Shown: one piece after another, positions 7,562-43,100 of the stretch
Position numbering within the stretch: position 1 is the stretch's first letter
Layout: every line of letters begins with the position of its first letter
Source: a virus
Taxonomy: Duplodnaviria; Caudoviricetes
Reading direction: 5' to 3' (one strand)
DNA: 52,656 nt
Virus record (IMG/VR): IMGVR_UViG_3300011335_000305
Span: 1-52,656 of that record
Position numbers and translations under genes: made by a program
Notes under the pieces: generated by a model
Database searches by the model: none
The model's input: the letters and a program-made list of their open reading frames with translations, nothing else
Told to the model about the DNA's origin: nothing

Positions 7562-8470
7562 TTAAGCTCCGGGGCTACCGTACATGCCTAATGGGTCTGA
7601 CCAACCGAATGAATAACGCTCACGAGACTTGTAACGGACGTTACCAGTATCAAAGTCGCCATCCATAGAATTGGATAGTGGGGTACGAACAAAGTGCTTC
7701 ATACCGTTAGGTACATCAGTACACAAATACCAACCGTTTGTATCGGTTAGGAAGTGGTTAATGGTGTAGCCTTCAGGAATAGAGCCGTTGTTCTTCAACG
7801 CATTGAGGTCGTTATCAGTTGTACCAATACGAAGTTCAGTCTCTAACAAACGAGTAGCTACGAACTGTAGTGCAGGTGGAACAACTAATTTACGAGGCTT
7901 AGCGGCAATTAATAGACCACGCTCATCAGTCCATGCTGCAATTTGAATAACTGCGTTTTCCAACGAAGTTTCATTCAAGTCAGCTGCGACAGTAGGAGTG
8001 TTGCCGTTAGTTGAGCCGTTAATAAGCGGATGAGATGTGCTGAATAAAGCAACGCCATCACCACCGGGATAAGCGGCAGAGAATCCGTTGTTAATTACAG
8101 CAGCAGCTTTAACCTGCTTAGTATAAGACATCGCACGAGCCAGACCTTTAGTATAGCGAGCTGATAGGCTATCGTAGAGGTTGTCTTCGATTGCTTCTTC
8201 AGTCAAGCTAAAGCCAAGGGCGATAGTTTCGTGATTGTAGCGAGCTGTCCAAGCTTCTTGCGCATTGTCATAAGCAATTGCAGAACCTTCGTTCTTAACC
8301 GGAGCGGCTGAGAACCCAGACAGTTTTGTTTCTTCTTCAAAAGAACGCTCAGAGGTTTCTGTTTCGTAAATCTCTTTGTGTTCTTCACCGTAGCGAGCAT
8401 ACTCCAAACCAAACAATGCGTTCAATCCGGGAAGGAGCTCTTTAAGTAGTTGTGCACGAGAAATAGCCAT
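7562..8470 (-). CDS. Major capsid protein (Mu gpT-like family)
   Basis: MAISRAQLLKELLPGLNALFGLEY N-terminus and RYKSRERYSFGWSDP C-terminus; strong SD; followed by a terminator. Confidence 0.92.
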   Translation of the reverse strand: MAISRAQLLKELLPGLNALFGLEYARYGEEHKEIYETETSERSFEEETKLSGFSAAPVKNEGSAIAYDNAQEAWTARYNHETIALGFSLTEEAIEDNLYDSLSARYTKGLARAMSYTKQVKAAAVINNGFSAAYPGGDGVALFSTSHPLINGSTNGNTPTVAADLNETSLENAVIQIAAWTDERGLLIAAKPRKLVVPPALQFVATRLLETELRIGTTDNDLNALKNNGSIPEGYTINHFLTDTNGWYLCTDVPNGMKHFVRTPLSNSMDGDFDTGNVRYKSRERYSFGWSDPLGMYGSPGA

Positions 8471-11117: not shown

Positions 11118-11298
11118 CTGAATGCTCCATTTTTTGTTTGAGGTCTGCAATAAGGGCACACGCAGCTTCCAGACCTCTAATCTGACCGCATGTGTAACGA
11201 TACTCTTCAAAACTTGTACAGTTTCCTTGGGATAATGCTGTTTGGAGCATACCTATTCGGTCTTTATACTCATTTAAAAGATAATCAATTTCACTCAT
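11110..11298 (-). CDS. Small conserved hypothetical protein
   Basis: 62 aa, FEEYRYTCGQIRGL motif; coupled to the portal gene. Confidence 0.7.
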   Translation of the reverse strand: MSEIDYLLNEYKDRIGMLQTALSQGNCTSFEEYRYTCGQIRGLEAACALIADLKQKMEHSDE

Positions 11299-13811: not shown

Positions 13812-15296
13812 TTAATAATATGCTGCTCTTTTGCGGTAAATCGGCTCATCGTCTTCATCACTGTCTAACTTAATAAACCCGCCTCTTCTAAATCGCAACA
13901 ACGCCTGAGTTGTGCTATCAACTAAGTCATCGTGGTCGGAGTTTGGAAACGCTGCCAATTCTTCAATTACCTCTTCTGCCCATCTAGTGGGTGGTGCCCA
14001 TATTTTCCCACTAGCAAATAAATCTGCCACTGAATTAACACGGCTTATCTTATCATTACCCCTAGTTGGTGTAAACTCTTGCACCGGTATACCCATCCTT
14101 CTTAACTCAAACACCAGTGGCGCACCGGACGCTTTCGCCTCTACTATACACGCATCTGGCTCCCATTCTTTAAACATTTCAAACGCTTTTGTCTTTAACT
14201 CCGGAAATTCCAGCCGAGCTTTATAAGCATCCAACAGAATAATATTCGGGCTATTGCGGTCTTCGTCCTTATAAAACACGCCCCAAGTCGTACACGCTGA
14301 ATAGTCAGCCCGTTCTGATTTAGTAAAAGCCGTATCCCAGCTCTGAATAATAAACTCACATGGCGGGGCTCGTTCATCCCAGACTTGCCACCACTCCCGT
14401 TTTACAAGAGCACCCTGCTCACTGGTCGGATCCTGTTGATACTGGGCTTGCCACTTAGATAACGGTAACTCAATCCGTAACTTACTTAATTCCTCATAAC
14501 TCCAGAACTGAGGCCAAAGTGGTTTCTCGTTCCTCTTAATAGCTGGCAGACTAATAATTTCCCACTCATCACCGTCTCGCTCAATGATGGCTTTCATAAT
14601 CTTGCCGGTCAAATCTCTCTTTGACCACCTTGTCATGACGATAACAATACTACCTCCGGGCTGGAGTCGCTGTCTTGGTCCAGATGTATACCACTCATAC
14701 ACCTTATCAAAGACGCTTGGATCACTAGAGGCTAACGCTGCTTCCTGTTCCGAATGAGGATCATCAATGATAAGTAAGTCAGCTCCTTTACCAGTAACAG
14801 TCCCGCCCACACCAATAGCAAAATACTCCCCATTAGCATTAGTGGACCAACGACCAGCAGCTTTACTATCAGACCGCAAACTGACATTGGGGAATACTTT
14901 ACCATACCGATCTCCGTCAACTAAGTTCCTAACTTTTCTACCAAAACCCACAGCAAGCCCAGCCGTATTTGAACACTGAATAATCTTCTTATTTGGAAAC
15001 TTTCCCAAAAACCATGCCGGTAATAAATAACTGGCAAACTCCGACTTCGTGTGTCTCGGAGGCATATTAATAATCAACCGTTTAACCTTACCGCTGGCTA
15101 TCTGCTCAAACTTTTTAGCCATTAACTCATGGTGATCGCCATGTATAAATTCCGGCCACATGGTCTTTACAAACTCCATAAAGTCCGACTCACCCTCTTC
15201 CCGCTGTATAGATTGCTGATATGCCGTAGCCAAAGGCGCAAGAGCGTCCTGCTCCTCCTTCGGTAACAGCTTAATAATCTCTAACAGATCATCCAT
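13812..15296 (-). CDS. terL: Terminase large subunit
   Basis: RLIINMPPRHTKS Walker A, LLIIDDPH Walker B, SWDTA and HDDLVDS nuclease motifs. Confidence 0.95.
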   Translation of the reverse strand: MDDLLEIIKLLPKEEQDALAPLATAYQQSIQREEGESDFMEFVKTMWPEFIHGDHHELMAKKFEQIASGKVKRLIINMPPRHTKSEFASYLLPAWFLGKFPNKKIIQCSNTAGLAVGFGRKVRNLVDGDRYGKVFPNVSLRSDSKAAGRWSTNANGEYFAIGVGGTVTGKGADLLIIDDPHSEQEAALASSDPSVFDKVYEWYTSGPRQRLQPGGSIVIVMTRWSKRDLTGKIMKAIIERDGDEWEIISLPAIKRNEKPLWPQFWSYEELSKLRIELPLSKWQAQYQQDPTSEQGALVKREWWQVWDERAPPCEFIIQSWDTAFTKSERADYSACTTWGVFYKDEDRNSPNIILLDAYKARLEFPELKTKAFEMFKEWEPDACIVEAKASGAPLVFELRRMGIPVQEFTPTRGNDKISRVNSVADLFASGKIWAPPTRWAEEVIEELAAFPNSDHDDLVDSTTQALLRFRRGGFIKLDSDEDDEPIYRKRAAYY

Positions 15297-15563: not shown

Positions 15564-15770
15564 CTAAACATCAGTATCATTTCTCTTTTCCATTCTCTCT
15601 GCACTTTGCCTTTGTCCATGCCGTAACCTTTTCATTAAATTAACATACACCTTATGCTCTTCATGCTGAATGATCATCCTGCGGATATACCTGATTAACT
15701 CATTTAACTTAATTTGATCATTTTCTACCAAGTATCTGATATAAAAAGCCACGTCCTCGTCCTGTATCAT
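15564..15770 (-). CDS. Hypothetical protein
   Basis: 68 aa ORF coupled to the TerS stop. Confidence 0.5.
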   Translation of the reverse strand: MIQDEDVAFYIRYLVENDQIKLNELIRYIRRMIIQHEEHKVYVNLMKRLRHGQRQSAERMEKRNDTDV

Positions 15771-16669
15771 ATACCCCCCTCCCCTTTTTTCTCAATTAAA
15801 TCAAGGGGGTGGGTGTCTGTAGAATTATTTTTTTCTAACAGGCTAACACTGTTAGCCCCCTGGGGTGTGATATTTTCTGGGGATTCGATGTGTGGAATAC
15901 TATGCAAGACTGGCTCGTCATGCGTGGGCGCATGGAGGCGTGTGGGGGTGTGTGCCTCCCCGTTTCCCCCGTCCAGATCACCATCCCCCGTCACAAATGT
16001 GTGCGTTTGCGTCTGTGTGTGCATCACATCCACATCTGCATCACTGGTTATGTCTGCGTCTACATGGTCAACATAGTTAACATCGATAGGCTCGTCTACA
16101 TTGTTGATCTCATCCAGTAGTTCTTGTGCGCTTCGCTTGGTCTTCACATGAATGCTCTGGGATCTCTGGATCGCTACTTGGATCGCTTCCATCAGCTTCA
16201 CTCGCAGTGAGTTCGAGTCCACTGTGTGTATCACTTCTGCCCTATGGGTAAACAAGGACACTTCACTCATTTTGCCAATTAGTTCCAGTGCTTTCAATTG
16301 TTGCGCTGGAGGAAGATCGTCATTCAAGGCCATGTTACTTAGCTTGTGTATTGCCATAGTCCTTAAACGAGAGGGTAATAGATATTCCTCCACCTCATTT
16401 GCCATCGTCAGGGCATTCACATAGGTGCTGACATGGGGATTGTTTGCTATCTTCTGTGCGTCTCTACTGGCAGTCTCTCTCTTCCCATTCGTATCGTAGG
16501 CTCTTCGGTATGCTTCTGTCTTATTCCCAGTCTTCACTAGTTCTTCTGCGAATGTCTTTTGTTTCTTTGTGAGTCTAATGTTATTCGGGTTACTTGCGCC
16601 TAACATGATTCTCTCAATAGGGACAGTTTTGAGTCCTTCCTGTATTTCTTTCCTTGTTAGTTTCTTCAT
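15767..16669 (-). CDS. terS: Terminase small subunit
   Basis: LTKKQKTFAEEL...NKTEAYRRAY HTH and LKALELIGK motif; upstream of TerL; disordered C-terminal tail. Confidence 0.75.
   Translation of the reverse strand: MKKLTRKEIQEGLKTVPIERIMLGASNPNNIRLTKKQKTFAEELVKTGNKTEAYRRAYDTNGKRETASRDAQKIANNPHVSTYVNALTMANEVEEYLLPSRLRTMAIHKLSNMALNDDLPPAQQLKALELIGKMSEVSLFTHRAEVIHTVDSNSLRVKLMEAIQVAIQRSQSIHVKTKRSAQELLDEINNVDEPIDVNYVDHVDADITSDADVDVMHTQTQTHTFVTGDGDLDGGNGEAHTPTRLHAPTHDEPVLHSIPHIESPENITPQGANSVSLLEKNNSTDTHPLDLIEKKGEGGI
15841..15857. repeat. 17-bp palindrome copy 1
   Basis: GGCTAACA-C-TGTTAGCC; also at 16766 and 45256. Confidence 0.9.
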
Positions 16670-26863: not shown

Positions 26864-27225
26864 AAGTAAAAAGACAATAGTTTCCCCAAGGGTGATAAGC
26901 CCTCATCCATTACGAAGTAACTATCGCAACTAATGCTCCCTAAGGTAATGTTCAATCGTCATAGTAGTTGTCTCACCTCTGTCCACTATAACTTGTGTGA
27001 TACCCATTTAAGTCCACGAGGCACGCTATCGGGTGAAGGATCAGCCTATGTTCTATTCCACGCAACCCATGTAGGTTCTTGATATCGTTTGGAGTACGTC
27101 AGTACTAGGAATGACACACAAAATGGCATAAATTTATACACATGAAACTAAAGTATATAAAAATATTCAATTTGTTTTCAGAGAATTGTTTCAGTCTCCG
27201 GTGTCATTCCTAGCAGTTGAGCCTA

Positions 27226-27255
27226 CAGATTAAACTATTTTTAAATATTTTGCAA
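27226..27255 (-). promoter_or_regulatory. Sigma70-like promoter
   Basis: TTGCAA-N17-TAATCT; spacer shares 14 bp with the sRNA promoter spacer. Confidence 0.5.
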
Positions 27256-27260
27256 CAGAT

Positions 27261-27299
27261 AAAAAGAAAGAACCCCAAATTTTTTAGATATGGGGTTCT
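27261..27299 (-). terminator. Rho-independent terminator of the sRNA
   Basis: AGAACCCCA/TGGGGTTCT stem followed by TTCTTTTT on the minus strand. Confidence 0.75.
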
Positions 27300-27387
27300 G
27301 GGTGTGGATAAGCAGGCATCCATGCCATCATTTGATTAACCCTGCTAGGAGTAGACACCAGATTGATGGCAGTACATGGGTTTGTAC
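27261..27387 (-). ncRNA. Putative trans-acting antisense sRNA
   Basis: Own promoter and terminator; stem TGCCATCA/TGATGGCA encloses a loop with CTCCTAGCAGGGTTAATCAAA, complementary to early-gene leaders. Confidence 0.7.
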
Positions 27388-27393
27388 CTACTA

Positions 27394-27423
27394 AGTATAG
27401 TGTATTTTTAAATATTGTGTCAA
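27394..27423 (-). promoter_or_regulatory. Sigma70-like promoter of the sRNA
   Basis: TTGACA-N18-TATACT. Confidence 0.75.
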
Positions 27424-27710
27424 TATATTGTACCTATATGGTTATTTTCAAACAACCAGCCAATTGTTTTTCGATGGCATTCATCCCATAACTCGATTCT
27501 TTCTTGCTTGGAAAGCTTGTTACCTTGATCTAATTCCATATGGCAAGAGTAACAAAGTGCGCCAATTCTGTAGTCATGGGCTTTGATTCCACGGCCTTTG
27601 CCGTCCCGTAGCTGGTTAGAATGCGCAGCCACCACCGTTCCATCGTTTCTGCCACAGTGTTGACAGGGTGATTGACGGACAATTTCTAGTAATTTCTTAT
27701 TTCGATACAT
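27420..27710 (-). CDS. DUF1364/DUF968-like His-Cys nuclease-like protein
   Basis: PCQHCG...TVVAAHSN...GKGRGIKAHD...LCYSCH. Confidence 0.7.
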   Translation of the reverse strand: MYRNKKLLEIVRQSPCQHCGRNDGTVVAAHSNQLRDGKGRGIKAHDYRIGALCYSCHMELDQGNKLSKQERIELWDECHRKTIGWLFENNHIGTIY

Positions 27711-27868
27711 GGAATCCTTAAAGTTGGGTGGATGTGTAGATTACTTGCCACCCCCAAGTTCGGAAAAGCCGATTAGGCGCATAAATTTTAAGGGGAGACA
27801 CCTAACCGATAATTGGTAATTTCGTATCTACAAGACTATAAAACCAAGCATGAATAACCTCCCCCCAA

Positions 27869-28057
27869 TTAACACCGACCATCGGGATCAAACTTATCCC
27901 AATGATTTTTTAAGTTTAAAGTATCGTTTAACTTTCTTATTTGGTATTCCAAATCTTTAATTTTGTACTCCATATCGGCTATACGCCTGTCCTTGTCGAT
28001 GCATTCTTTGATAATACTGTCGTAGTCTGCCTGTAATTTCCTTTGGTAAACATCCAT
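27869..28057 (-). CDS. Small coiled-coil hypothetical protein
   Basis: 62 aa ORF with SD. Confidence 0.55.
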   Translation of the reverse strand: MDVYQRKLQADYDSIIKECIDKDRRIADMEYKIKDLEYQIRKLNDTLNLKNHWDKFDPDGRC

Positions 28058-28066
28058 AATAACCCC

Positions 28067-28249
28067 TTATATGTCTTCTCTTTTATATTTCTTTAACAAA
28101 AAATACTTAAATTTTCTTAGTGCCTTCTTCTCTACTTCGCTAACTCTGCTTCTTGACATACCCAAAATTTCTGCTACTTCCTCTTGGCTCATATGCCCTT
28201 CATCGTTTCTTGGTGACTTACTTTTTGGCATATCTTCCTCTTCATGCAT
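28067..28249 (-). CDS. Sigma70 region-4-like HTH protein
   Basis: MSQEEVAEILGMSRSRVSEVEKKALRK. Confidence 0.8.
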   Translation of the reverse strand: MHEEEDMPKSKSPRNDEGHMSQEEVAEILGMSRSRVSEVEKKALRKFKYFLLKKYKREDI

Positions 28250-28258
28250 TTAATTTTC

Positions 28259-28471
28259 CTATTTAGCTTTGAGTGCGTTCATAACCACCGCAATCTTGTG
28301 CTTTAAAGCAGAAATTTCAACCTCATCCCTTCTTCGTTGTTCCCTGATGCCAATGTTCCACGCCCTTTGCCAAGCTGACCAAGCAACCTGTGCGCTTGTG
28401 TTAGCGTAAGAATTCTCATGGCGAACCAATGAAATTTTTCCTTCAGCCCATTCCTCAAACTCTTGTTTCAT
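28259..28471 (-). CDS. Hypothetical protein
   Basis: 70 aa; EFEEWA...AWSAWQ motif; AAGGAG SD. Confidence 0.65.
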   Translation of the reverse strand: MKQEFEEWAEGKISLVRHENSYANTSAQVAWSAWQRAWNIGIREQRRRDEVEISALKHKIAVVMNALKAK

Positions 28472-28877
28472 TGTATCTCCTTAAATATCGTCACAACACC
28501 TAGTTTCACAATCTTCGCAACAATTACACAGACTCTCTTCGTCTCCATGTATTTCTTCGGCAAAAGGGCAAGTATGCATATCTTGTGCCGGTTTCTTTTC
28601 GCAACAGCCACATAACTTTTTCATTTCTCCTCCTTATTTATGGCAATACGGACACTTGACCAGTATGGTTAGTATCTTTGACTTACAATGTACACAAATG
28701 TAAGGTGTCATTTCTCACTCGCTTTTTTTAGTAATGTTCTGAATTCATCCAATCCAACACCAACCATTTTTATTATTTCCTCATCGGTTAATTTACTTTG
28801 TTGTTTAAACATTGTGCAAATTAATCTCCACTCTTTTTGTGTAGGCAAAATGTCAGGATTCATTACAATTTCTTTAC

Positions 28878-29153
28878 TCATCCCTCACTCGCTTTCTTTA
28901 GTATTGCTCTTGCAAAATCAATTATCATATCTGTACTCAATTTAATTCCAAGCGCATCTTTATAAACTTGCATTATTTCCTCATCAGTTAACTCACGCAT
29001 TGGTTGCTCTTTAACTATGGGTTGCGCTTTAACTAAGTTATGCAACGCTTGTATTTCGGCTGACGTATACAAAGGGTTTAGTTTAAGTATCGAATCAGGT
29101 GGTGACTCTTTAAACAATATACCGCCATCTGATATGTATGCACTTGGTTTCAT
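28878..29153 (-). CDS. Hypothetical protein
   Basis: 91 aa; LTDEEI...FARAILKKASE motif common in small phage genes. Confidence 0.65.
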   Translation of the reverse strand: MKPSAYISDGGILFKESPPDSILKLNPLYTSAEIQALHNLVKAQPIVKEQPMRELTDEEIMQVYKDALGIKLSTDMIIDFARAILKKASEG

Positions 29154-29368
29154 TTCTTACTCCAATAAAATAGTTTAACGACTAACCTAAACCATAACGG
29201 TACATTAGGTTTATTAGGTTTATCTTCCTCAACCGATTTAGTCCCCCCATACAAACCTCTTGGGTCATGCCAACCAAATGTGTATCTCTCTTTAAATTCA
29301 GGCAATGGAAAACATTTACGACATCCTCCTAAATAAATACCATGTCTACAATTGCCGTAATGACTCAT
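29150..29368 (-). CDS. Small protein carrying a major-capsid C-terminal motif
   Basis: 72 aa, ATGA-coupled on both sides; ERYTFGWHDPRGLYG. Confidence 0.65.
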   Translation of the reverse strand: MSHYGNCRHGIYLGGCRKCFPLPEFKERYTFGWHDPRGLYGGTKSVEEDKPNKPNVPLWFRLVVKLFYWSKK

Positions 29369-29628
29369 TTTTCCCTCGCTTTCATCATCGCATCTGCAAA
29401 TTTATACGCAACATTCGCATACCCATCATACGGAAACTCATCATACGGAAACCCATCCATATCATCAATATACCAACAACTATCATCGCCTCTACTACCC
29501 TTTAACGGTAGCCCCATATGCTTCATGGCTTGAGCCGCAAAGTAATCCCTTAAGTCCATACCGCTATTCTCTTTAACACCTACTACGTTGTTACCATAAA
29601 TCGCTTCGCTACTTGGAAATGCTTTCAT
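29365..29628 (-). CDS. Conserved phage hypothetical protein
   Basis: GMDLRDYFAAQAM...AYKFADAMMKAR motif. Confidence 0.75.
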   Translation of the reverse strand: MKAFPSSEAIYGNNVVGVKENSGMDLRDYFAAQAMKHMGLPLKGSRGDDSCWYIDDMDGFPYDEFPYDGYANVAYKFADAMMKAREK

Positions 29629-29822
29629 CTGTCGCTCCTCATTGTTCGTTTAGCTTCTTCACACAACTTTGCGTAATCCTTGGGTACATCGGGATGCCAT
29701 CCACCCAACAGTAGTTCGCAGTTTAGTTTATATACTTCTTCCTTACGACTCAACTCGGTTAGGTAAATGATAAGCCCGCAGAACACAATCCACATACATA
29801 CAATAATTGGTATTGATTTCAT
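29625..29822 (-). CDS. Small membrane protein
   Basis: N-terminal TM helix; NC...GWHPDVP...C. Confidence 0.6.
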   Translation of the reverse strand: MKSIPIIVCMWIVFCGLIIYLTELSRKEEVYKLNCELLLGGWHPDVPKDYAKLCEEAKRTMRSDR

Positions 29823-30418
29823 TAGTAACCCTCAGATAATTTTATCTTAGCTTCTTTTAAACTTTTAACAGCACTTGCAACTCTTTTTGCCCAGCACTGA
29901 ACTTTTTCCTTGTGTTTTTCTTCGTCACGCTCATTCCAACCAAACTCTGTATCTCTTTCTGGTGGCACTTCTTTTGTTTTCTCCCATAATGTTGGACTAA
30001 TACCCAACAAATCATCAAGTACAGATGTACGAGAAGGGTGACGCAGTTTTCGAAAAGCTTTGGCTTCAATCTGACGGACACGTTCTTTATGTATTGAATA
30101 CATACTGGCAATTTGTTCAAGACTGTAATCAGTAACAGTGTCAATCCCAAAACGAAATTGAAGAATTTTTGATTCTCTAGGCGTTAAGCTATCTATCATT
30201 CGTCTTACTGTTTGTTTAAATTGAATCTCTTCCAAGATATCTTCAGGGCCAAAAAATTCAGTTAACTGTTCAATTTCTTCCGGATTAATTGTTTCATAGC
30301 TAGACTCTTCTTCAACAAAATAAGTTGGAGTAAAGTCCCCACTTAATGGCAATAGCCCAAGAGAGCCAATAACTTCACGCTCTCTGTAATGCATGGCAGT
30401 TTTATATTTTTTTCTCAT
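29822..30418 (-). CDS. RpoD region-4-like protein
   Basis: LTPRESKILQFRFGI...DYSLEQI...ERVRQIEAKAFRKLRHPSR is close to the sigma70 C-terminus. Confidence 0.85.
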   Translation of the reverse strand: MRKKYKTAMHYREREVIGSLGLLPLSGDFTPTYFVEEESSYETINPEEIEQLTEFFGPEDILEEIQFKQTVRRMIDSLTPRESKILQFRFGIDTVTDYSLEQIASMYSIHKERVRQIEAKAFRKLRHPSRTSVLDDLLGISPTLWEKTKEVPPERDTEFGWNERDEEKHKEKVQCWAKRVASAVKSLKEAKIKLSEGY

Positions 30419-30583
30419 TTACTTTGTCATACTTGCGTTTTTTGATGGCAGCAATACCAGCTTCAGGGCTTTTGTTTCGGGCAAGTAACATTTCATCAGC
30501 AAACCTATAACAATCTTCTGCGTTTGCCCCTGTTATCGCTTTAAACATAGCAAAACAATCTCTTAGATCTTGTTCGTTCATTA

Positions 30584-30862
30584 TTAATTCCTTAAAGATT
30601 GAATTTGTTCTGACAAAAGTAATCCCAAGTCTTTGCCTTTGATGGCAATCATTTGGGCTTCTTTGCAGTCATAAATTATTTTGCTGGCATCTTCAAGACC
30701 TTTGTTATAACCAGTCTTAAATTGATCAGTGCCGTCTACCAACATCATAATTGCATCACGAATCAGGGCAGAAGCTTTCCTGTTTTTGGCAGCTTCCTTC
30801 AGTTTTTTATGATGCGCCTCTGGCAAATAGACAGAGTACGGTATTAATTTTTTTGAGTCCAT
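30584..30862 (-). CDS. Ribbon-helix-helix-like protein
   Basis: PYSVYLP...LKEAAK...SALIRDAI. Confidence 0.55.
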   Translation of the reverse strand: MDSKKLIPYSVYLPEAHHKKLKEAAKNRKASALIRDAIMMLVDGTDQFKTGYNKGLEDASKIIYDCKEAQMIAIKGKDLGLLLSEQIQSLRN

Positions 30863-31278
30863 TCTTGGTACTCCCTAAAAAGTCTATCTAATAGTATTTG
30901 AGCTTCTCTGTTGGTTTTTAAATCTGACCTAGAAGGAATGTTTAGATACGATCTAAGCCATTCTGTAGCCTCTTCCATGTCTTCAATAAAGATACGATCA
31001 TCAGCGTGTAAATACTTCCAAAAGTTTGGATCCCTAGAAAGAATACCGGCTAGTCGAATTGCTCGATCACCGGAAAACTCTTCCGCTTTATCCATTGGCT
31101 GTTCATTATCATTAAGCCTGACAAGTACACATTGGTACCTAGCCCCAACAAAATCCCTGAGCAACTCTTCAGGAATTTCATCAGGATGTAGTGACAATGT
31201 TAAAACATAGCCAGTCTTATCTTGTTTGAGAGCAACCTTTACTGCTTCGAATTGCAAGGTTTTCAATGTTACTCCCAA
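30844..31278 (-). CDS. Conserved hypothetical protein
   Basis: 144 aa ORF in the recombination module. Confidence 0.65.
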   Translation of the reverse strand: MGVTLKTLQFEAVKVALKQDKTGYVLTLSLHPDEIPEELLRDFVGARYQCVLVRLNDNEQPMDKAEEFSGDRAIRLAGILSRDPNFWKYLHADDRIFIEDMEEATEWLRSYLNIPSRSDLKTNREAQILLDRLFREYQEWTQKN

Positions 31279-31538
31279 GGGTTAGATTCGGTTTTCTTCA
31301 CATAAGGCTGACCAATGCTCATGGAAAGATACTTGCCCACCTTTTCTGACTCTTTACTCCATGCACTGACAGATACTTTAATCGTAGATTCTTTTGACTT
31401 ATCAATTAAATCCAGTAGAAAGGTTTTGTCAAGAACTACCTCACCCCTTAAATCAGGTTGTGTTTCAGTCTTTTTAAAACTGTTCTTGAATAAACTGCCT
31501 GTGTTGGGTTTTGCTACATACGCTTCATCGTAAGCCAT
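31269..31538 (-). CDS. Putative single-stranded DNA-binding protein
   Basis: GSLFKN...QPDLRG...SAWSK...KYLSMS with an aromatic C-terminal tip; follows ERF. Confidence 0.6.
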   Translation of the reverse strand: MAYDEAYVAKPNTGSLFKNSFKKTETQPDLRGEVVLDKTFLLDLIDKSKESTIKVSVSAWSKESEKVGKYLSMSIGQPYVKKTESNPWE

Positions 31539-31540
31539 TA

Positions 31541-32245
31541 TTATTCCTTTGCAAAATTAGCTTTGGTTTGAGTAAATTTGCCCATCATTTCCTTAAAGAA
31601 GGATGGGTCAGTTGCTTTGACCGTATCAAATAGAACTTTGTTCTTTTTAAATATTGTCATTACATCGGCATCACTAGTACATACGTCTAGTAATAAATGA
31701 GAAGCTGTTTTAACCATGTCTAGCCATTCAGTTGCATCACCTTCAGGCACTGGCGAGACTCTAATCTGAAACTCTCCCCTATCCCCTTCAATTAGCTTGT
31801 TTGTCTCAACTGGCTGAATCTCTTTAACTTTAGGCAATACTGTTGGTTTAATTGGCGCAACTGGCTCAATATTCCCAGTTGTAGAATCTAGTGCATCATG
31901 TTCAGAGATTGCAAGGGCAGATACATAAAGATACCTACGCTGATACGTTTCTACCGCCCCAATATTCTGTACCACATGGCATCCTTTTAACTGGGCAGAT
32001 CCCATTGGCGATGTAAACACCACAGATGAACCATCTTCTACATCATAGACAGTCATTGTTGCTACATCTTCTGTAAAAGAAATAATATCGCACAGACCTA
32101 CATGCTCAAAGATAGACTGAACATAAGGCAAAAAATCACCCAGTTCAAAGTATTGATACCCTGCAAACTTGTTATGCCCTGACTTCTTTAACTCTAGCTT
32201 TCTCAGCATATTCCTTGCTTTGATTAATTTTGCATAAACTTTCAT
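31541..32245 (-). CDS. erf: ERF-family single-strand annealing protein
   Basis: KKSGHNKFAGYQYFELGDF and QNIGAVETYQRRYLY motifs. Confidence 0.85.
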   Translation of the reverse strand: MKVYAKLIKARNMLRKLELKKSGHNKFAGYQYFELGDFLPYVQSIFEHVGLCDIISFTEDVATMTVYDVEDGSSVVFTSPMGSAQLKGCHVVQNIGAVETYQRRYLYVSALAISEHDALDSTTGNIEPVAPIKPTVLPKVKEIQPVETNKLIEGDRGEFQIRVSPVPEGDATEWLDMVKTASHLLLDVCTSDADVMTIFKKNKVLFDTVKATDPSFFKEMMGKFTQTKANFAKE

Positions 32246-33783: not shown

Positions 33784-34125
33784 ATGAAAATAATTAATTT
33801 ACCTTGGCCTCCGAAAGAATTATCCCCCAACGCCAGTATTCATTGGTCTAAGAAGGCAAAGTACAAAAAATTGTATCGGGAAGCTTGCTGGGTTTTAACC
33901 CTAGAAACTAAGCTAACAGTAGATACATTAGGGAAAGTCCCTATAGAGATAACCTTTTACCCACCCGATAAAAGACTGCGGGATGCGGATAACATGGTTG
34001 CCAGTATTAAATCTGGCTTGGACGGGGTAGCTGATGCTTTAAAAGTTAATGATAGGCAATTTTTGCCTACCTTTATTTTTACAGACGAAGTTAAGGGGAT
34101 GGTTTCTGTTCGGCTTGTAGTCTAA
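33784..34125 (+). CDS. rusA: RusA-like Holliday junction resolvase
   Basis: LPWPP...LSPN, FYPPDKRLRDADN...KSGLDG...VND motifs. Confidence 0.8.
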   Translation: MKIINLPWPPKELSPNASIHWSKKAKYKKLYREACWVLTLETKLTVDTLGKVPIEITFYPPDKRLRDADNMVASIKSGLDGVADALKVNDRQFLPTFIFTDEVKGMVSVRLVV

Positions 34126-37100
34126 ATCGAATCGTTTGCTCTAAGATTCTTTCTTTGGTTAACTTTAAGTTATTAATCTCAGCCCGTTTTTGTTCTGCAT
34201 TCCTCTGCGACTCAGGTAATTTTTCAATTCTACGGATATTGGAATTAATTTCAGACAAGTCCTTACCAGCTTGTTGAGTAAAGCCATACGCCTTGATCTC
34301 ATTAATATGATCTTGATACCATGACTTTGCTTCTGCCGTTTTCTGATTCTTCATCAAATCTCGGTATGTTGCCATAGCCACTTCGGTACGTTGTTTTAAG
34401 TCATAGAATAAGTCTTCTCTACCTCTTGGTACGTCAGGCGCTACAAAGCTTCCATACAGAGGATTAGAACGCTCTTCTGGCATTGGTCTATTATTCCCTA
34501 GGGCATTAGACATCCACATTGCTGTAGCCGCCACAGTGCCCCCTAAACCACGCATGAGGTGATCTGCTTCCATTGGGTTTAATAAACGCTTTTCTTTACC
34601 CCCTGTAACAGAGCTTAACCATTTGCCAAGTTCAGAAGTTGCAGCATTGTACTGCTCAAAAGCGGCTAAGTTTTCCATACCTCTTGGTGTAATCCTACCG
34701 CCAGTAAAGAAGTTACGGTTTAATTTAATTTCAGCCAAGGGCTTTAATCCTGTTGGCACTGGTCCCGATCCCAATGGACCAGCAAACGCATCAATAAGTC
34801 CTTCATGTAGGGCTTTACGCAGTCTTTCGTTATCTACTGCATCCTTTGTTCCTTCTTTTGTTATCTGATTAAATAACATTTCTGGAATAGACTTAAATAG
34901 ATAGCTGGCAGATGTATGCATTGGTATTAACAAAGTATGATCGTAACCAACTTCTTTCATTAACTTCTTAGGAATAACAAAGTTACGCATCTTTGTTTGA
35001 TCATCCATCTTGTTATATTCGTCATCATCACCGATGGCGTAACAATATAAAAGAACGGTTGCCGATAAGCCAAGCCCTGCAATAGTTAAACGAGTAATAG
35101 CTTTTTGACGATCCAGTCCTTTTAAGTTGCCACTGACACTAGTTACTTTTGCCCCAGTTAACTTTTCAATTCCGGCAGCTGGCACTTCCATTAACGCTTG
35201 TGTTAGTACGTCAATTTGCTGGGCAAACGCATTCATAAACGAAATAGTACGGTTTAAGAATTGCGCTGTAGCACTGTTGCCACGCTTTTCAAAGTCAATC
35301 ACATTGGTTGCAGCCAGTAGCGCTGCTCGCATGTCACCGCCAACAACTTTGCCATTAACAATCTTACCGCCAGATTCTATAATTTTCCGCATAAACACGG
35401 CTCTACGCTGTGAATAGTCAGAGGCATCACCAATCCGATCAAGCAATTTAGTAATCTTGGCGTAAGTAGACTGGTTAAGCAAACCCATTTCCTGTTTAAA
35501 TTCTTGCTCAGCAGTTCTTGCCGTAGAAGTAAAGCCACCAATACCATGTGATTTAAGTATTTGTACAACTGGATCATTGCTATTTAAAGCTTTAATGGCG
35601 GAAGAAAATACTTTAGTCCACAGGGCTAATGGGTTTTTTACACCTGTTACCAGCATAGCCGTTGGCGCATCCATAAATACTTGTTTGGCTTGGAACGCTG
35701 GGGAAATAGTTACTGCTCTGCGTAAGCCGTTGGCAAAGAATGATAGAACCGTTCCCATAGGCACTTGAATGCTTTCAATACCAATTGCAGCTTGAGCAAT
35801 CAGTGGATCAGCAATTTGAATATTTACCTTGCGACCATTAACTAAAATCTTAATAATGCCTTTTGAATGATCTTCTTGTGGGAATACTTTTAATTTGCCG
35901 TTCTCATTACGAACACCATACTCTTGGGCAATTCGGTTCATGGCGTAATTTTTAATAACATTACGGACTGTAACCATAACATTGTGAATCATGTTGTCCA
36001 CAATATCATCAATATCTAAATCAACTTCACCTTCTTTAAATTTTTGTTCTCTAGAAACATTTCGCACTGCTTTTGTGCCATAAGTATATTTTGGCGTAGC
36101 AGGACGGAACCAGCTTGCAGAATGAACATCCTCTTGGTCATCCATAATACGATTCCAAGGAACGTAATCCTCAATTTCTCTTAATGATTGAGCACGTCTT
36201 TTATCAATCATCTTTGCAAACTCCATGAAATCTACCATGTTTTTGTTAACAGCGCCCCAGTTATCCATCATCTGACGGAGTTCTGGGTGGAGTTTTTCTA
36301 AGTCACTGTATTTGTCAATCTCTTCATCGGTTAAGTTAACCTTGTCTAAAGCTATCTTAATATTTCGTAACCCTAATTCTGCATCGGCAATCTTGTTTAA
36401 CAGTGTTAACTGACGCTCTACACCAGTAGCCGGATCCATTTGTTCTGTTTTAAGATCTTCTAATTCACCCTCACGTTTCAGGTATTCATTCACAATAGAA
36501 CGGGAACGCTTAGCTTCAAAGTAAGCTTGAATTGCTTTGTAAGACAGCTCTCGACCAATACGATTTTCTAACTTATGTTTTAAGTCAATCACATTAGCCA
36601 TTGAATACTTGCTTTCTGATGCAGCAAACATTTGCTCATTTGGGTCGAATGCAAGCATTCCATCTAAAATTACTTGAGTTCCTATACGGGTAGCTCGTAA
36701 TGCTTGATTCATTGCCACAGAAGCTACAGCACGATTTTGGCTATCCTCTAGCATACGCCCATACCTTGCGGCATCAGCAGCTGTTAAGCCGGCAGTAAAG
36801 TCAGTTGTCTTAATCCTTGCGGCAAGAACTACACGATCTACATTGCCAACTAAATTAACTGCGGCCTGTTTAGGGTTGACAAGCATATTCCTACCAATAC
36901 GATTGGCTTCCTTCATGCCACCCATCAGCTTGTCATAGTTTGAGCCGGATACAGACAGAGGAGCATCTGGTCTATCTTTTAATATATCTTCTGTGGTTTT
37001 AATATTGTTAATAAAATCTAGTTTAACTTTGCCTTGGGTAAGGTAATCCACCAACATAATATTATGGGATCTTGGTGTTTCACCTTTAATCAACTGATTG

Positions 37101-40100
37101 AAAGCTTTGTAAATTGGGTACTGGTTATTAAACCCAAATACGGATTTTAATCCTTCAAATAACTGTTTGACAAATTGTACAAACCGATGCCACGGAGTAC
37201 CCATTTTGGTAGCAAATAACCGTTCAGCATTAACAGCCCAGTATTCAGATGGGTTAATGTACTGATACATATCCATGTTTGGGCACAAAGATGCTGCAAT
37301 ATCAAAATTTTCCTTTGTTGGTCTTTCAATAAAATCTAAGACAGCTTTGAAATATTTTGCATTAACAGCGTCAGTGTTCTTTTTAATTGCAGCGTCTAAC
37401 GCTTTTTTCCAAGAATCTATAATGGCATCTCTGGTCTGAGGTGTCATCATATTTTCTAAGGTATGCATTAATTCATGGCGAATCGTAACTGGACTGTTTG
37501 TTCCAAGACCTTTGTACAAAGTAACCAGTTTTGAAAATGTATTGTAATTTCCAATAGAAGAGCCTGTTTCATTCTTACGAACAGATAACTTAATGCCAGT
37601 TAATAAAGCTGGAGTTCTGTCGTAAAGGTATCGAATAACATTTAAAGTTTCTTCGCTGATATTGCTTTTAGAAAACTCATCAAAAGCTTTCTTCATAAAA
37701 TGTTCAGGCGTATCATTCTTTGGCGTAGTTAACTTGATGTCTTGTTTTAACTCATCAGACAATTCAAGTAACCTAGATAGTTCACGCTGATAGCCAATGG
37801 TTACTTCGCCCTTGGCAACTTTCTTCATAATGTGAGCAGAGCGTTGACGGAGTTTTTTATACTCCGCTATCTGTTCATCATGGATACGTTTAATGGCAGC
37901 CGTTACTTTTTCATTAGGTTTAAATGTTATTGCATTAGTTTGAATAGGTTTTTGGGTATAGCTAGTTAATGTATAACCTTCACTATGGGCTTGACGGTCA
38001 TACTCTATAATTTTTTCAGGAGACAATACACCATCTTCCAATTCAGCGCCATTAAAAAAACTAACTTCAACAGGTATATATTTCCACCCTAATTCTTTTG
38101 CCACCATAATGCGATGGTTTCCTTCGTTTACATAAGGAGTACCATCTTGGTAAATGTTTAAAAATGGAGCATAGTGTTCTGGCTCTTGCTCTGGTCTAAA
38201 TGCCGGCAATTTATTATTCTTACTCATGTAATTAGTTAGCCATTTAATGGAGTCTGAACGAACATTTTGTTGTTCAGCTCGCATACCTTGCAATTTTGCT
38301 AATACATTTACAGGAAGAAGAACTTCTCTTTCACGAACACCTTCACGTCTAAATGATGCAGTAACAGAACCAAATCTTTCTGGTACTCCATATTTATCTA
38401 CACCATCTTCTTTTGACTGTTCTCTCTTACCTCTTAACCATCCACCGCCCGGATTATCCGTTCTTAATGTCAGTAGCTTGGCTGTTGGGAACGCCATGTT
38501 GTTTGTAGGAATAATGGGGCCAAATAATTTCTTCGCCTCTTCCTTTTTATTCAAAGCAATTAACGAATCACCTTTTTCATTTATTAAATAGTCAATAACT
38601 TTCTTTGCTGTTTCCTGTTCATAAGTAAAGGCATACATCGTGCTACCTGACTTATAAAAATCACCCAGTAACTTTGTTAATCTGCTATCTAAGAAATAAA
38701 TGCCACCAGTCTTCTTTGAGCTTGGTACGTTAAATTGAATTTTTCTATTATTACCAATAATTTGTAAAACTTTATCAGCTGTGCCAATAGTTCCGTTAGC
38801 TTCTGTTAAAAACTTTATAGCATCATCTGCTGATTTTATTTTTGTTGGTGCATCACTTTGTGCTTTGGTAAAGTCATATGTCCTTGGCATTAAAACACCT
38901 TGCCCAGTTGTGCCATCCGATTTTGTATAGGTCATAATCTGACCTTGGTTGTCTACAACTGGAGAAGCAAAGCCAGATAAAATGTTACCAGTTACCATCC
39001 AGCGTTTTTCACGCCTAACTGTTGCACCCTTGTCAAACAAATCCATTAAATCAATATTTTCTGCTACGCCAGTTTCAGGGTTTAACCAATTAATAATACC
39101 CTCTTGCGCTAATTGATATGTAGTACCAATTTGAGAAAAGTTTATTGAAGTAGATTTAGCTTCACCATTTGCCAAAGCAATTGTCATTTTCCAATCAGAA
39201 CCAGCAGCTGGATTCTTTGTTTTACCTTTTGTTTCTACGTTGGTGATCACGCCATAAACAAAAACACCTTGGTTATTCTTAACAGAAATAGCCGTACCAA
39301 TTGGGTAAGCTCTTAAAATAGTCTTAATGTGGTTTTCATTTAGACGTAATTGGTCTAATGTTTTATTAGTTTTTACTTCGTCAGCTTCACTTTCTTTTAA
39401 TTCAGCTTTCTTTTGCTCAATAAAAGCTTTCATTGCGCCACTGAGTACACCATTCTGCTCATTGCCAATTTGTCTACCGCTTACATTACCCAAATTTTCA
39501 TCAATTATTTGTTTTACTTCTGCCTTGGAATATGGCTTAACAGTACGCTTAACATCAATTTGTTCCATAAATGCTGGTCTAGCAAATAAAGAATCACCTT
39601 TTGATTCAGTAATGGGTGTAGAAGATAATGTTTCAGCATCAAGGTCAAAAGCCTTAGCTTCAAGCTTATTGGTTCCCATACTGTTTTCACGCTCAAGCAA
39701 ATCGTTGTAGCGTTCAACTAAGTCTTTGTAGATTTCCTCTTGATCTTTAATTGGCAATATGGGAATGTAACCCGTTAATTTACGAATGTCTTCTTCATCA
39801 GCTTCAGACGGATCATCCGATATTTCTAATAATTTTTTACCACCCAATGCTTCATAAATTTCTGGGTTGTCATTTAAAAACTCTTGAGCAACTTGACCAC
39901 CGTACTCATTCATAAAGTCTACAGCACCTTCAGCAGTTACAGCAGACTTACGAGAAGCTGTTGTATTCGCATTAAGTGATGCCATTTTCTTTAACAGAAC
40001 GGCAGCTGGGCGCATTTCTGCGGGAATATCAGCCATCATCTGTGAATAAAACGGAGGTTGAATTTGTCCAGTTCGATGTACCCGCCCAAGCATTTGCATA

Positions 40101-43100
40101 TGCGTATCAATGTTCTTTTCAGCCTGAACAATAATCATATGGCGCTTTTTTGTATTTTTTAATCCTTTTTTGGCGTGTAAAGATAAACCAGTAGAGCCGG
40201 CTTGATTTAATATGATTACTCTAATATCACCGTTATTAAATGCTTTAACTGAGTTAACACGGTCTTTAATACTGGGTGAACGAGGCATTAATAATGGCGT
40301 TCCACTCTCATAATTTATAGTTAATGTACGACCAGTAATCTCACCTGTTTTATATCCAAGTTTGCGTAATTCGCTATGCATATAATCAATTGGTGACATT
40401 GGAGCAGAACCAAACCCAGCATTATTAATAAATGTTTTAATGGCGTTGTATTGCTCTGTTAATGTTGGCCCAAGATCTTGATCAGTCAAACGGTAGATTT
40501 GAAAGTCTTCTTTTTTAACTGCTCCGGGCGGTTTAATAGTTACTGTACGTTGTTTTTCTAAATATCTTAAATACAAATCTTTAAAGGATAAGTTAATTGG
40601 ATCACCAGTTTTAAGTCCCATTTCATCTGCATATTGCTGTAAGAATGAGCCCATTGTATTAGATACAGTTAATACAACTTGCTCGCCACGCTTTAAACTT
40701 TCTACAGCATGTTTAATAGAATCCTGTGCCTTCAATGACAATAACATTTGGTCAATCAAGTTATGCATTGTTGAGCCAAAGTTAGCAGATTGGACTTGGG
40801 TTTTTTCTGACCCTCCCCTTATTATTGAGCCACGCTTATCTAATTCTTTTTGTATTTCACCTACTGCTTTTTCCTTCTCCCTAGAGAATGACAAAATATC
40901 ACGCATAGACGTAGCCATGTTTTCGGCAGTAGCTTTGTCAACTTTAGTTTCAACAGTGTTATAACTTACACCGGCAAATGTACGCTCTCTACGAATATAC
41001 TGTCCTACTTGTGTAAGCATGTTTGCAACAATCTGTTGCATCGGAATGCCGCCATTTTTAATAGCTTCACCCAGTTCTGATATGTTATCCACAGCAAGGC
41101 TCATATCTGTGCTGGAATACAAATCCATTACATCTGGGCGTTTAGCGTAAGTGGCTGATGAAAAGAAAGAGCCAAAAGAATTGTTAACCATTTCACGAAT
41201 AAATGAAGAACGGCCTGTGCCTTCTTCATCGGATTTTTTACTTGTGCCGCCAGCGTTATGGCTTTCGTCTAAGATTAAGTATCCGTCATTACCAAAATGA
41301 TTTAAAAAAGCTTGGCGTTCTGTTGGCGCTTTTTTAACCATTTGTGTCTGAGAATAATTAGTAAAAATAACCTTGTAACGACCAAGACTGTCATCTGCTC
41401 TTAATTTCTTAAACAGTGCCGTTAATTTATACCCTGATTTTTTTTCATCTTTTAGAGGTGCTTTTAATATAAAATCTTTTTCAACGGGCTCACCATTAAC
41501 TTGTCTTATTAATGTGTAAGGCACTGGCTCATTGTTGTTAGTTACTATTATTTTAGGATTATTGGACTCTAAAGCTAACTCATCAGTCATGCCAATATCA
41601 TCTAAATCCCTAATCATGTCAGAGTACAGATTGGGTTTTTCTGTCATAAATATTGGTGTTTTGCCATTTAACAAAGCATACTTAATCATGCCAGCTACAA
41701 CACGACCTTTACCAACACCTGTTTGATCGCCAATAATAAATCCTTTACCAGCTTCAGCGTTGCTAATTGCTAATGCAAGAGCATCTATTTGCTCAGCCGA
41801 GAATTTCTCTCTTAATGTTTCAGGATCCATTTGTAACGCTTCGGCTACATATTCATCAATATCGCCAAATTGTGCTTCCAGTTTAGTAAGAGACTGGTCA
41901 ATGGATTGTGCCATTGCTCTTGGAGCTAATGTTCCAACAGCTGCGGCTTGAGAATGCGGAGTATAACTTACCTGATTCTCGGTTTCAATTTCTTCACCCC
42001 TACGGTCTTTTAATCTAGACTCGATTGGTATACCTGTGTCAGTGCTAGGTTCACCCAATCCTCTAGGCTCGTTTCCTGTATCGCTTGTTCCGCCTCTGGG
42101 CTGTTCTCCTTTAGCTGTGCTGGAAACGGGTTTTCCAACATCTGCAGGTTCAGGTTTGTTAACAGGTTTAGGTTGTCCTTCACTAACACCTGTCCCAGTT
42201 GATTCGGGTTGTCCACGCTTGGTAGGTCCAGCTTCAGACACGCCTTGTCTGCCGCCTCCTGCGGGTTCTTTTCTTCCAGCACTAGGTTCATTACCCTCTC
42301 CGCTAGGGCGTTCACCCAATCGCTCTGACTCACCTCCCCTGCCGGTAGGTTCACTGATGTCAGTTCCACTGGTGCCAATATTTTCTCCGGATACCATGCT
42401 AGATTCATTTAGCTTCTCCTTTAACTGTTCATAGTTTTCAATAATTTTTGGAAGATCCCCAGCCGGTAATGATCTTTTAGGCAGAGTAAATCTAAGGTTT
42501 TTTGATTCCCATTTTCCGTTAATAACAATAACATCAACAGGATAACTAGCGCCCTGTTTAGAATACATATCGCCAGCTATCGTAAAGTGATCTACTACGT
42601 TGTAATCTTTATATAAATTAACGTAAAAATTACGTTTAGATGCGCTACGATATCCTTCACGCCTTCCTTCTTCTGTATTTGATTGAACGCCACCAACAAT
42701 TAAAACAGCACGACCATTACTTCTCATGCTTTGTAAAGATTTCATAACAATAGCGTGATCAATTTCTCTAGTTTTAAACCCGTCAATATTAAAATCTTCC
42801 CCAATAGATCCAAATGGAGGATTTTCAATAACAACATCTACAGTACTTGGTGTTACTTTTACACCGTTTTCATTAGTAACTTTGGCACCAGAAAGTACTT
42901 TTTTAAGCATTTCAAAACGGCTAGAGTTAAGCTCGTTTGCTATTACCTTCTTTGGGTTAGCATCAATCAACAGCATTCCGTTACCAGCTGTTGGTTCGTA
43001 TACGGTAGTGCTATCTGTTATTCCAGCCAGTTTACTAGCTACAAATGCCAATGGTGCTGGGGTTGAATACGCCTGTTCTCTAACACTGGTTGAAGAACGC

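Follow-up and report, generated by a model that had tools for sequence, protein, structure and literature searches.

Why should a small protein encoded among the replication genes of a phage carry the motif with which the major capsid protein of the same phage ends? The question is raised by a virus record of 52,656 bases, the whole of which was analysed and is referred to here as the window. Genes for packaging and for the virion span about 0.5-16.7 kb of its minus strand and include those for the small terminase (15767-16669), the large terminase (13812-15296), the portal (11295-13802), and tail-fibre-like proteins. A replication and recombination block occupies 23.3-33.5 kb of the same strand, with genes for a primase, a helicase, a ParB-like protein, an HNH endonuclease, a protein with sigma-70 region 4, an Erf-like annealing protein, and an exonuclease, and it is within this module that the gene for the 72-residue protein is found. 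An earlier sequence-only reading had described this gene as distant from the structural module, which the layout bears out, and the coordinates and letters that it gave for the small ORF and for the capsid motif proved correct.

DNA nearly identical to the window is found in river, lake, and other freshwater metagenomes, and a megablast search of positions 27000-32000 against the phage collection returned 0 matches. The carriers of the gene form a group of uncultured freshwater podovirus-like phages that are kin to Pelagibacter phage HTVC023P and Synechococcus phage MinM2.

The small gene, its modules and its family

The small gene occupies 29150..29368 of the minus strand, stop codon included, and is delimited by homologues and by synonymous variation. 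Its ATG overlaps the stop of the upstream gene and its own stop overlaps the start of the downstream gene, in both cases as ATGA, so that it is coupled to both neighbours behind a GAGG ribosome site. No run identified as RNA was found for 28600-29900, and two runs guessed to be RNA cover 28841-28918 only, outside the gene. Four parts can be distinguished in the protein, all encoded on the minus strand. Codons 2-25 (29294..29365), delimited by DNA alignment, form an N-terminal Cys/His module with C7, H9, C16, and C19. Residues 26-41 (29246..29293) are the capsid-tail-like motif KERYTFGWHDPRGLYG, identified by BLASTP and profile comparisons, of which the sequence-only reading had reported residues 27-41, ERYTFGWHDPRGLYG (29246-29290). 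A variable acidic and proline-containing linker, residues 42-55 (29204..29245), is recognized from in-frame length variation, including a 9-nt indel at 29204, and is followed by a conserved cationic amphipathic helix, VPLWFRLVVKLFYWSKK, residues 56-72 (29153..29203), defined by AlphaFold2 and conservation.

The AlphaFold2 model of the small protein has a mean pLDDT of 57.8, in which a helix at residues 58-71 reaches a pLDDT of 70-83, while the motif has no confident structure (pLDDT about 50) and is not packed on the helix. The helical segment 56-72 has a hydrophobic moment of 0.47 and contains R61 and K65, and the protein as a whole is basic (net charge +7) and rich in aromatic residues. A transmembrane anchor was considered and ruled out, the best 19-residue Kyte-Doolittle mean being 0.17. 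Searches of PDB sequences with the small protein returned nothing, and the ESM Atlas offered no usable neighbour, the best score being 0.78.

Among 5.8 billion proteins searched, 20 relatives of the small protein were found, of which 18 possess both the motif and the C-terminal helix. Sixteen of these 18 are 42-82 residues long and start directly at M-K-(E/K)-(R/K)-Y-T-F-G-W, and the common form of the family is short, at 45-50 residues. An exhaustive profile search of 1.84 billion representatives returned 17 proteins, including more short forms. The short form is also the one encoded at all 11 viral loci, relative to which the window shows a clean in-frame insertion of 72 nt right after the ATG. 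A Cys/His stretch precedes an intact motif, as in the window, only in P0001 and P0002; P0019 combines the Cys stretch with a decayed motif, and P0020 combines it with a different C-terminus. The statement that the motif follows a Cys/His cluster thus holds for the window and fails for the family, since the cluster is joined to the motif in only 3 of 20 homologues and constitutes a separate, shuffled module. Among the 17 proteins of the profile search, P0145 joins motif and linker to another C-terminus, and six small proteins, P0146-P0151, carry the same Cys module ahead of unrelated C-termini. From these sequence comparisons, the Cys module, the helix, and the tail motif together with its linker are read as three modules that are shuffled.

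The 24-residue Cys-x-His-x6-Cys-x2-Cys module is itself a promiscuous N-terminal head, found on at least seven otherwise unrelated small proteins (P0020 and P0146-P0151). C7, H9, C16, and C19 are invariant in all 11 module-bearing proteins (the window protein, P0001, P0002, P0019, P0020, and P0146-P0151). With these residues as putative metal ligands, the module may be a zinc knuckle or another small zinc-binding unit; it matches no profile family and its model is of low confidence, and P0146 has EF-hand matches below the cutoff.

The outcome named as refuting by the sequence-only reading, a motif absent or eroded in homologues, is not what the family shows. Eight of its residues (Y29, F31, G32, W33, H34, D35, R37, and L39) are conserved in at least 90% of 21 rows, and the conserved residues of the helix region are P54, N55, P57, W59, L62, V64, K65, L66, F67, and Y68. 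Twelve DNA copies vary synonymously at the codons for Y, T, F, G, L, and G and at those for P, N, V, P, R, L, and V, and length changes within the family come in threes. Because motif and helix are conserved despite this synonymous codon variation, the gene is judged from sequence to be real and under selection at the protein level. It is extremely improbable that the ORF is a chance open frame or an assembly artefact: its small size and the absence of its family from Pfam (E<=0.1), PHROGs, and NCBIfam would favour such a reading, but the frame is kept in the related viral loci and the database proteins, with indels in threes, synonymous changes, and translational coupling on both sides.

Likeness of the motif to the capsid tail

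The ORF at 7562..8470 of the minus strand encodes a 302-residue major capsid protein with the HK97 fold, of the Mu gpT-like or Phage_capsid_4 type. This identification, already proposed from the letters, is supported by matches to Pfam Phage_capsid_4 (5.7e-13), Mu-like_gpT (4.7e-9), and phrog_371 (1e-21). The protein ends in ...RERYSFGWSDPLGMYGSPGA, with the motif at 7577-7621; the segment corresponding to the small protein is RERYSFGWSDPLGMYG, residues 283-298 (7577..7624, minus strand), delimited by the AlphaFold2 model and the tail alignment. In that model, the tail is predicted as a beta-hairpin with strands 288-290 and 296-298 at a pLDDT of about 71, within a model that is weak as a whole (mean pLDDT 58.1, pTM 0.51). 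Foldseek of the capsid model against the PDB yielded weak HK97-fold rows only, none at E<=0.001; a PDB sequence search with the capsid protein returned nothing, and the capsid profile gave only marginal PDB matches, to the JBD30 and Mu capsids (E 0.39-1.5). In the marginal JBD30 alignment (8rkc/8rkx; Mu 9jod), a segment like query 265-292 precedes the segment matching query 163-222, which hints at a strand-order permutation between this capsid family and JBD30-type capsids, at scores too low for a conclusion. By analogy with HK97, we take the tail to lie probably in the A-domain sheet, where it may be buried in the folded subunit or poorly exposed.

The variability of the tail was followed in 223 capsid genes taken from 232 related loci on viral and MAG contigs, whose tails share the pattern K-[AS]-[TR]-E-R-Y-x-[FVL]-G-[WF]-[ST]-D-[PW]-[RL]-[GA]-x-[YFW]-G-[ST]-x-G. 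Each residue of the small motif occurs in some capsid, the tails of some capsids reading GWTDPRGLYG or GWHDAR. The tail skeleton is kept in cultured phages down to about 30% capsid identity. In all, 22 records of cultured phages contain capsid relatives, among them Synechococcus phage MinM2 and Planktothrix phage Pag-Yong1 (69%), Pelagibacter phages HTVC023P and HTVC027P (62%), Roseobacter phage CRP-901 (54%), Alcaligenes phage QDWS535 (48%), Caulobacter phages GB2A and RW (38%), and Bacillus phage PK1 (33%). In one related genome (G006; L030/L107/L111), a 65-kb contig with a completeness rating of 100% carries the 3' part of the capsid gene at each end, which probably reflects terminal redundancy of a circularly permuted assembly.

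Residues 26-41 of the small protein and 283-298 of the capsid are identical at 11 of 16 positions (35.0 bits, E=3e-8 in BLASTP of the pair). Against the 296 stop-to-stop frames of at least 50 residues in the window, the match has an E-value of 3.3e-6 and the next unrelated frame scores 19.6 bits, and none of 500 shuffles of the small protein reached 35.0 bits, the best scoring 29.3. A profile-profile comparison of 21 small-family rows with 34 capsids gave a probability of 92.1% (E=6.3e-7) over 20 columns, residues 24-43 against 281-300. The likeness with 11 identities to which the sequence-only reading had drawn attention is accordingly real.

A profile of 128 distinct capsid tails recovered all 23 motif-bearing small proteins at 11.5-33.2 bits, the window protein scoring 31.0, and nothing besides motif-bearing small proteins scored above 3.8 bits among 329 targets, which comprised the other frames of the window, proteins that have the Cys module alone, and four Listeria-Bacteroides repeat proteins. 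In the reverse direction, the small-family profile recovered the tail of every one of the 223 capsids, at a median score of 11.5 bits. The link between the small motif and the capsid tail is thus confirmed, at the level of sequence, as specific and beyond chance.

The shared pattern of 15-16 residues, (K/R)ERY.FGW.DP(R/L)G.YG, is common to the small motif and to the tails of Phage_capsid_4 (PF25209) capsids of HTVC023P-type and related phages; the capsid of Caulobacter phage GB2A and some from metagenomes are identical to the motif at as many as 12 of 15 positions. The small protein lacks the remaining 285 capsid residues, the HK97 fold, and any Pfam capsid match; in comparison with Phage_capsid_4 and Mu-like gpT (PF10124), 20 columns align, at the extreme C-terminus only, and the tail motif ERY.FGW.DP..YG is present. 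The two proteins also differ in that the motif stands at the N-terminus of the small-protein core and at the C-terminus of the capsid, and in that His34 is nearly invariant in the small family where capsids mostly have Ser or Thr. The motif looks like a faithful, selectively conserved copy of the capsid tail, which suggests molecular self-mimicry.

At the DNA level, the two motifs of the window coincide at 31 of 48 bases, and different codons are used for 6 of the 11 identical residues, in agreement with the earlier remark on differing codons. A recent capture of capsid DNA was rejected, at most 35 of 48 bases being common with any of the 223 capsid tails. A second likeness, between small residues 32-63 and capsid residues 179-204 (BLASTP E=0.07), was also discarded, the family profile giving negative scores only, in 11 of 223 capsids, and matches running past the capsid stop were attributed to T-rich terminator-like DNA translated beyond the stop. 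Prediction of a complex between the capsid (37-row alignment) and small residues 24-72, run without controls, scored 0.00 in both runs and speaks neither for nor against binding.

Distribution and mobility of the gene

Every long contig with the small gene (6 of 6) carries a capsid of the same family. In five long gene-bearing contigs, three capsids are 91-94% identical to that of the window and two only 39-40%; despite this divergence, the small protein remains 73-86% identical across carriers, with the motif almost unchanged. The resident tails of the carriers are ERYSFGWSDPLGMYG, ERYAFGWADPRALWG, and ERYQVGFTDPRALFG, with variants PLGMYG, PRALWG, and VGF..PRALFG, whereas the small motif is constant and consensus-like; each carrier examined shows at least 4 mismatches in 15 positions between it and the resident tail. 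Conversely, the gene is absent from all 10 other genomes with 84-91% identical capsids, four of which are 99-100% complete; the small protein matches nothing in them but the capsid tail. Five of these gene-less genomes were also checked for the neighbour gene upstream, and all five lack it. The small gene was found in no cultured phage, and the genomes of 185,579 species yielded no relative.

Lake DNA contigs join 29149 to 29365, a gene-sized skip with short flanks at the joint, which hints at a gene-less variant, and river and lake DNA runs contain a form without the 72-nt Cys module (joint 29292->29365). Taken on sequence, the small gene does not track the resident capsid; it is an optional cassette within a mosaic of clustered small genes and moves between rather distant phages of one capsid family.

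Within 29149-29372, the populations in the lake and river runs vary by skips that correspond to the whole small gene (215-216 nt), to the Cys module (72 nt), and to a KPN repeat in the linker (9 nt), and further skips occur in neighbouring small genes. Three successive gene junctions on the minus strand (29365-29385, 28878-28898, and 28708-28728) have common DNA, AAAGCGAG(G/T)GA...ATGA, which contains a ribosome site and an overlapping stop and start. Because of this common junction DNA, the upstream proteins at the three junctions all end in ..(K/M)KA(S/R)E(K/G), a tail also seen at the C-terminus of many relatives (P0001, P0002, P0148, P0150, and the products of the small genes of L003 and L011). 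The element looks like a reused coupling junction and could serve as a recombination linker for the shuffling of cassettes; a shared protein tag is the alternative.

Candidate functions of the motif

Two facts have to be explained jointly: a likeness, specific and kept by selection, to the part of the capsid protein that varies least, and a spread typical of accessory genes for host interaction. The sequence-only reading had suggested a captured capsid fragment, a decoy against capsid-sensing defence, or an assembly inhibitor. Captured fragment or mimic is a fair description in view of the specific link to the tail, but decoy, assembly inhibitor, and relic fragment are not told apart by the results, and capture has left no trace in the DNA (at most 35 of 48 bases), the motif not following the resident capsid tail.

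A relic or convergent, self-contained aromatic beta-hairpin with an unrelated job and no present link to the capsid is a substantial possibility, though short of probable. Such a hairpin would pack on its own helix or on an unrelated partner and would act on a membrane, a nucleic acid, or a host enzyme; the functions of most small accessory phage proteins are unrelated to virions. The basic, aromatic-rich character of the protein, its amphipathic helix, and its position among genes of DNA metabolism agree with this, as do the lack of co-variation with the resident capsid tail and the absence of DNA-level likeness to the capsid. Hairpins of this kind also recur in unrelated folds: the small-family profile reaches four Listeria-Bacteroides repeat proteins (E 4e-9 to 9e-4), both of the two checked against Pfam being Flg_new, and the second half of that repeat (PF09479) has a similar hairpin, K-E-G-Y-T-F-x-G-W-x-D-...-L-x-G, ending in YAKW. 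The repeat differs, however, in being a 65-residue cell-surface unit whose first half is missing in the small protein, which has no match to the 65-position Flg_new profile at E<=0.1. Its hairpin has one extra residue, so that a one-residue gap is needed, and it is not returned by the capsid-tail profile, whereas the likeness to capsid tails runs without gaps over 15-16 residues and reaches 12 of 15 identities with some of them. The confinement of the motif to phages having the same capsid family, and the failure of AlphaFold2 to pack it on the helix, likewise speak against an unrelated hairpin.

The capsid protein itself is the only partner of the hairpin known in principle, and a role directed at the capsid is the most direct reading of the hairpin's normal contact. 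The small protein would dock where the tail hairpin normally sits and delay, chaperone, or poison head assembly, acting in trans during folding or at the capsomer centre, or else it would be taken up into heads; the target would be the phage's own capsid or, the motif being consensus-like, the capsid of co-infecting relatives. The profile likeness fits such a role, and the family-wide conservation of the tail and its surroundings would allow one constant mimic to fit many capsids. The gene is nevertheless dispensable in close relatives, is placed in the replication module away from the head genes, and mismatches the resident tail at no fewer than 4 of 15 positions in each carrier, and the reading, which fits this optional, replication-module location less well, is considered unlikely.

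The reading favoured here, tentatively, is that of a tail mimic made early, which would compete for a factor recognizing the conserved capsid tail, with a host sensor as the foremost candidate. A relic or convergent hairpin with an unrelated function is just as likely. The motif would be a free-standing copy of the tail, arising from an old capture or from selected mimicry, in a small protein made with the replication genes, before the capsid or apart from it. It would compete for whatever recognizes this conserved and hard-to-change piece of the capsid, the first candidate being a host factor, most plausibly a defence protein that senses capsids; the helix would anchor or oligomerize the mimic, which would act as a decoy or blocker needed by the phage in some hosts only. 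Since the motif is constant while resident tails differ, a common outside target fits better than the phage's own capsid, and a host capsid sensor comes first among the candidates, given that the motif is consensus-like, hardly changes between carriers, and is dispensable. A tail that the whole family keeps, even at capsid identities of about 30%, would give a sensor something to rely on, and an unfolded motif beside a confidently predicted helix is as expected for a motif that folds on its partner.

Natural cases in which capsid proteins are recognized by defence systems offer comparisons. The Gol peptide of gp23 of phage T4 activates the Lit protease, and it is similar in that a short stretch of a major capsid protein is a stand-alone recognition element for a host defence protein; it differs in that it belongs to the capsid protein and has no gene of its own, and in that it triggers defence and does not counter it. 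That capsid proteins trigger bacterial immunity is established. CapRel SJ46 is reported (PMC11578894) to sense both the major capsid protein and Gp54, a small protein of phage Bas11, two activating triggers that are unrelated in sequence and structure. The case is alike in that a capsid and a small non-structural phage protein address one host sensor, and it demonstrates that hosts have sensors of this type, which small early proteins can encounter. In contrast to those triggers, the capsid and the small protein share a motif here, and a decoy must block, not trigger.

Binding without triggering is an extra assumption, which counts against a decoy, as the similar aromatic hairpin in the unrelated fold of the Listeria-Bacteroides repeats counts, on sequence grounds, against a mimic. 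The carriers, moreover, all belong to one gene pool, and their co-occurrence with the capsid family may be mere kinship. That an early, optional mini-protein pre-occupies a host immune sensor for capsid tails without triggering it, as a self-mimic encoded by the phage, is doubtful; if true, it would be the first natural capsid-peptide decoy. Full-text searches found no paper on a phage accessory protein copying the tail of its own capsid or on a natural capsid-mimic decoy, and while molecular mimicry by small phage proteins is already known, the copy of a capsid tail is new with respect to the literature searched.

Bacterial immunity recognizes conserved virion proteins, capsids among them, and these are targets that phages cannot change. 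The small gene is a concrete candidate for protection by mimicry or for control of head assembly: a selected copy exchanged among phages with capsids as little as 40% identical, in a short family whose separable motif, linker, and helix are amenable to experiment. The phages that carry it are abundant in fresh water, and relatives in culture infect Synechococcus, Planktothrix, Roseobacter, Caulobacter, and Pelagibacter. Should the likeness be mere structural convergence, it would be a warning against reading short capsid-like motifs as decoys.

Several other genes of the window merit mention. A single open frame at 34091-46744 of the minus strand, 4,217 residues long, takes up a quarter of the genome and is followed by frames of 944 and 623 residues, both without a PHROG family. 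Three genes upstream of the small gene, 29822-30418 (minus) encodes a 198-residue protein that has only region 4 of sigma-70 (Pfam 6.8e-16) and could be an anti-sigma-like or appropriator-type transcription factor. The 65-residue protein of 29625-29822 (minus) has a hydrophobic span at its N-terminus and a stretch, GGWHPDVPKDY, with a faint likeness to the FGWHDP of the motif; at two related loci (L004 and L010), its homologue stands directly upstream of the small gene.
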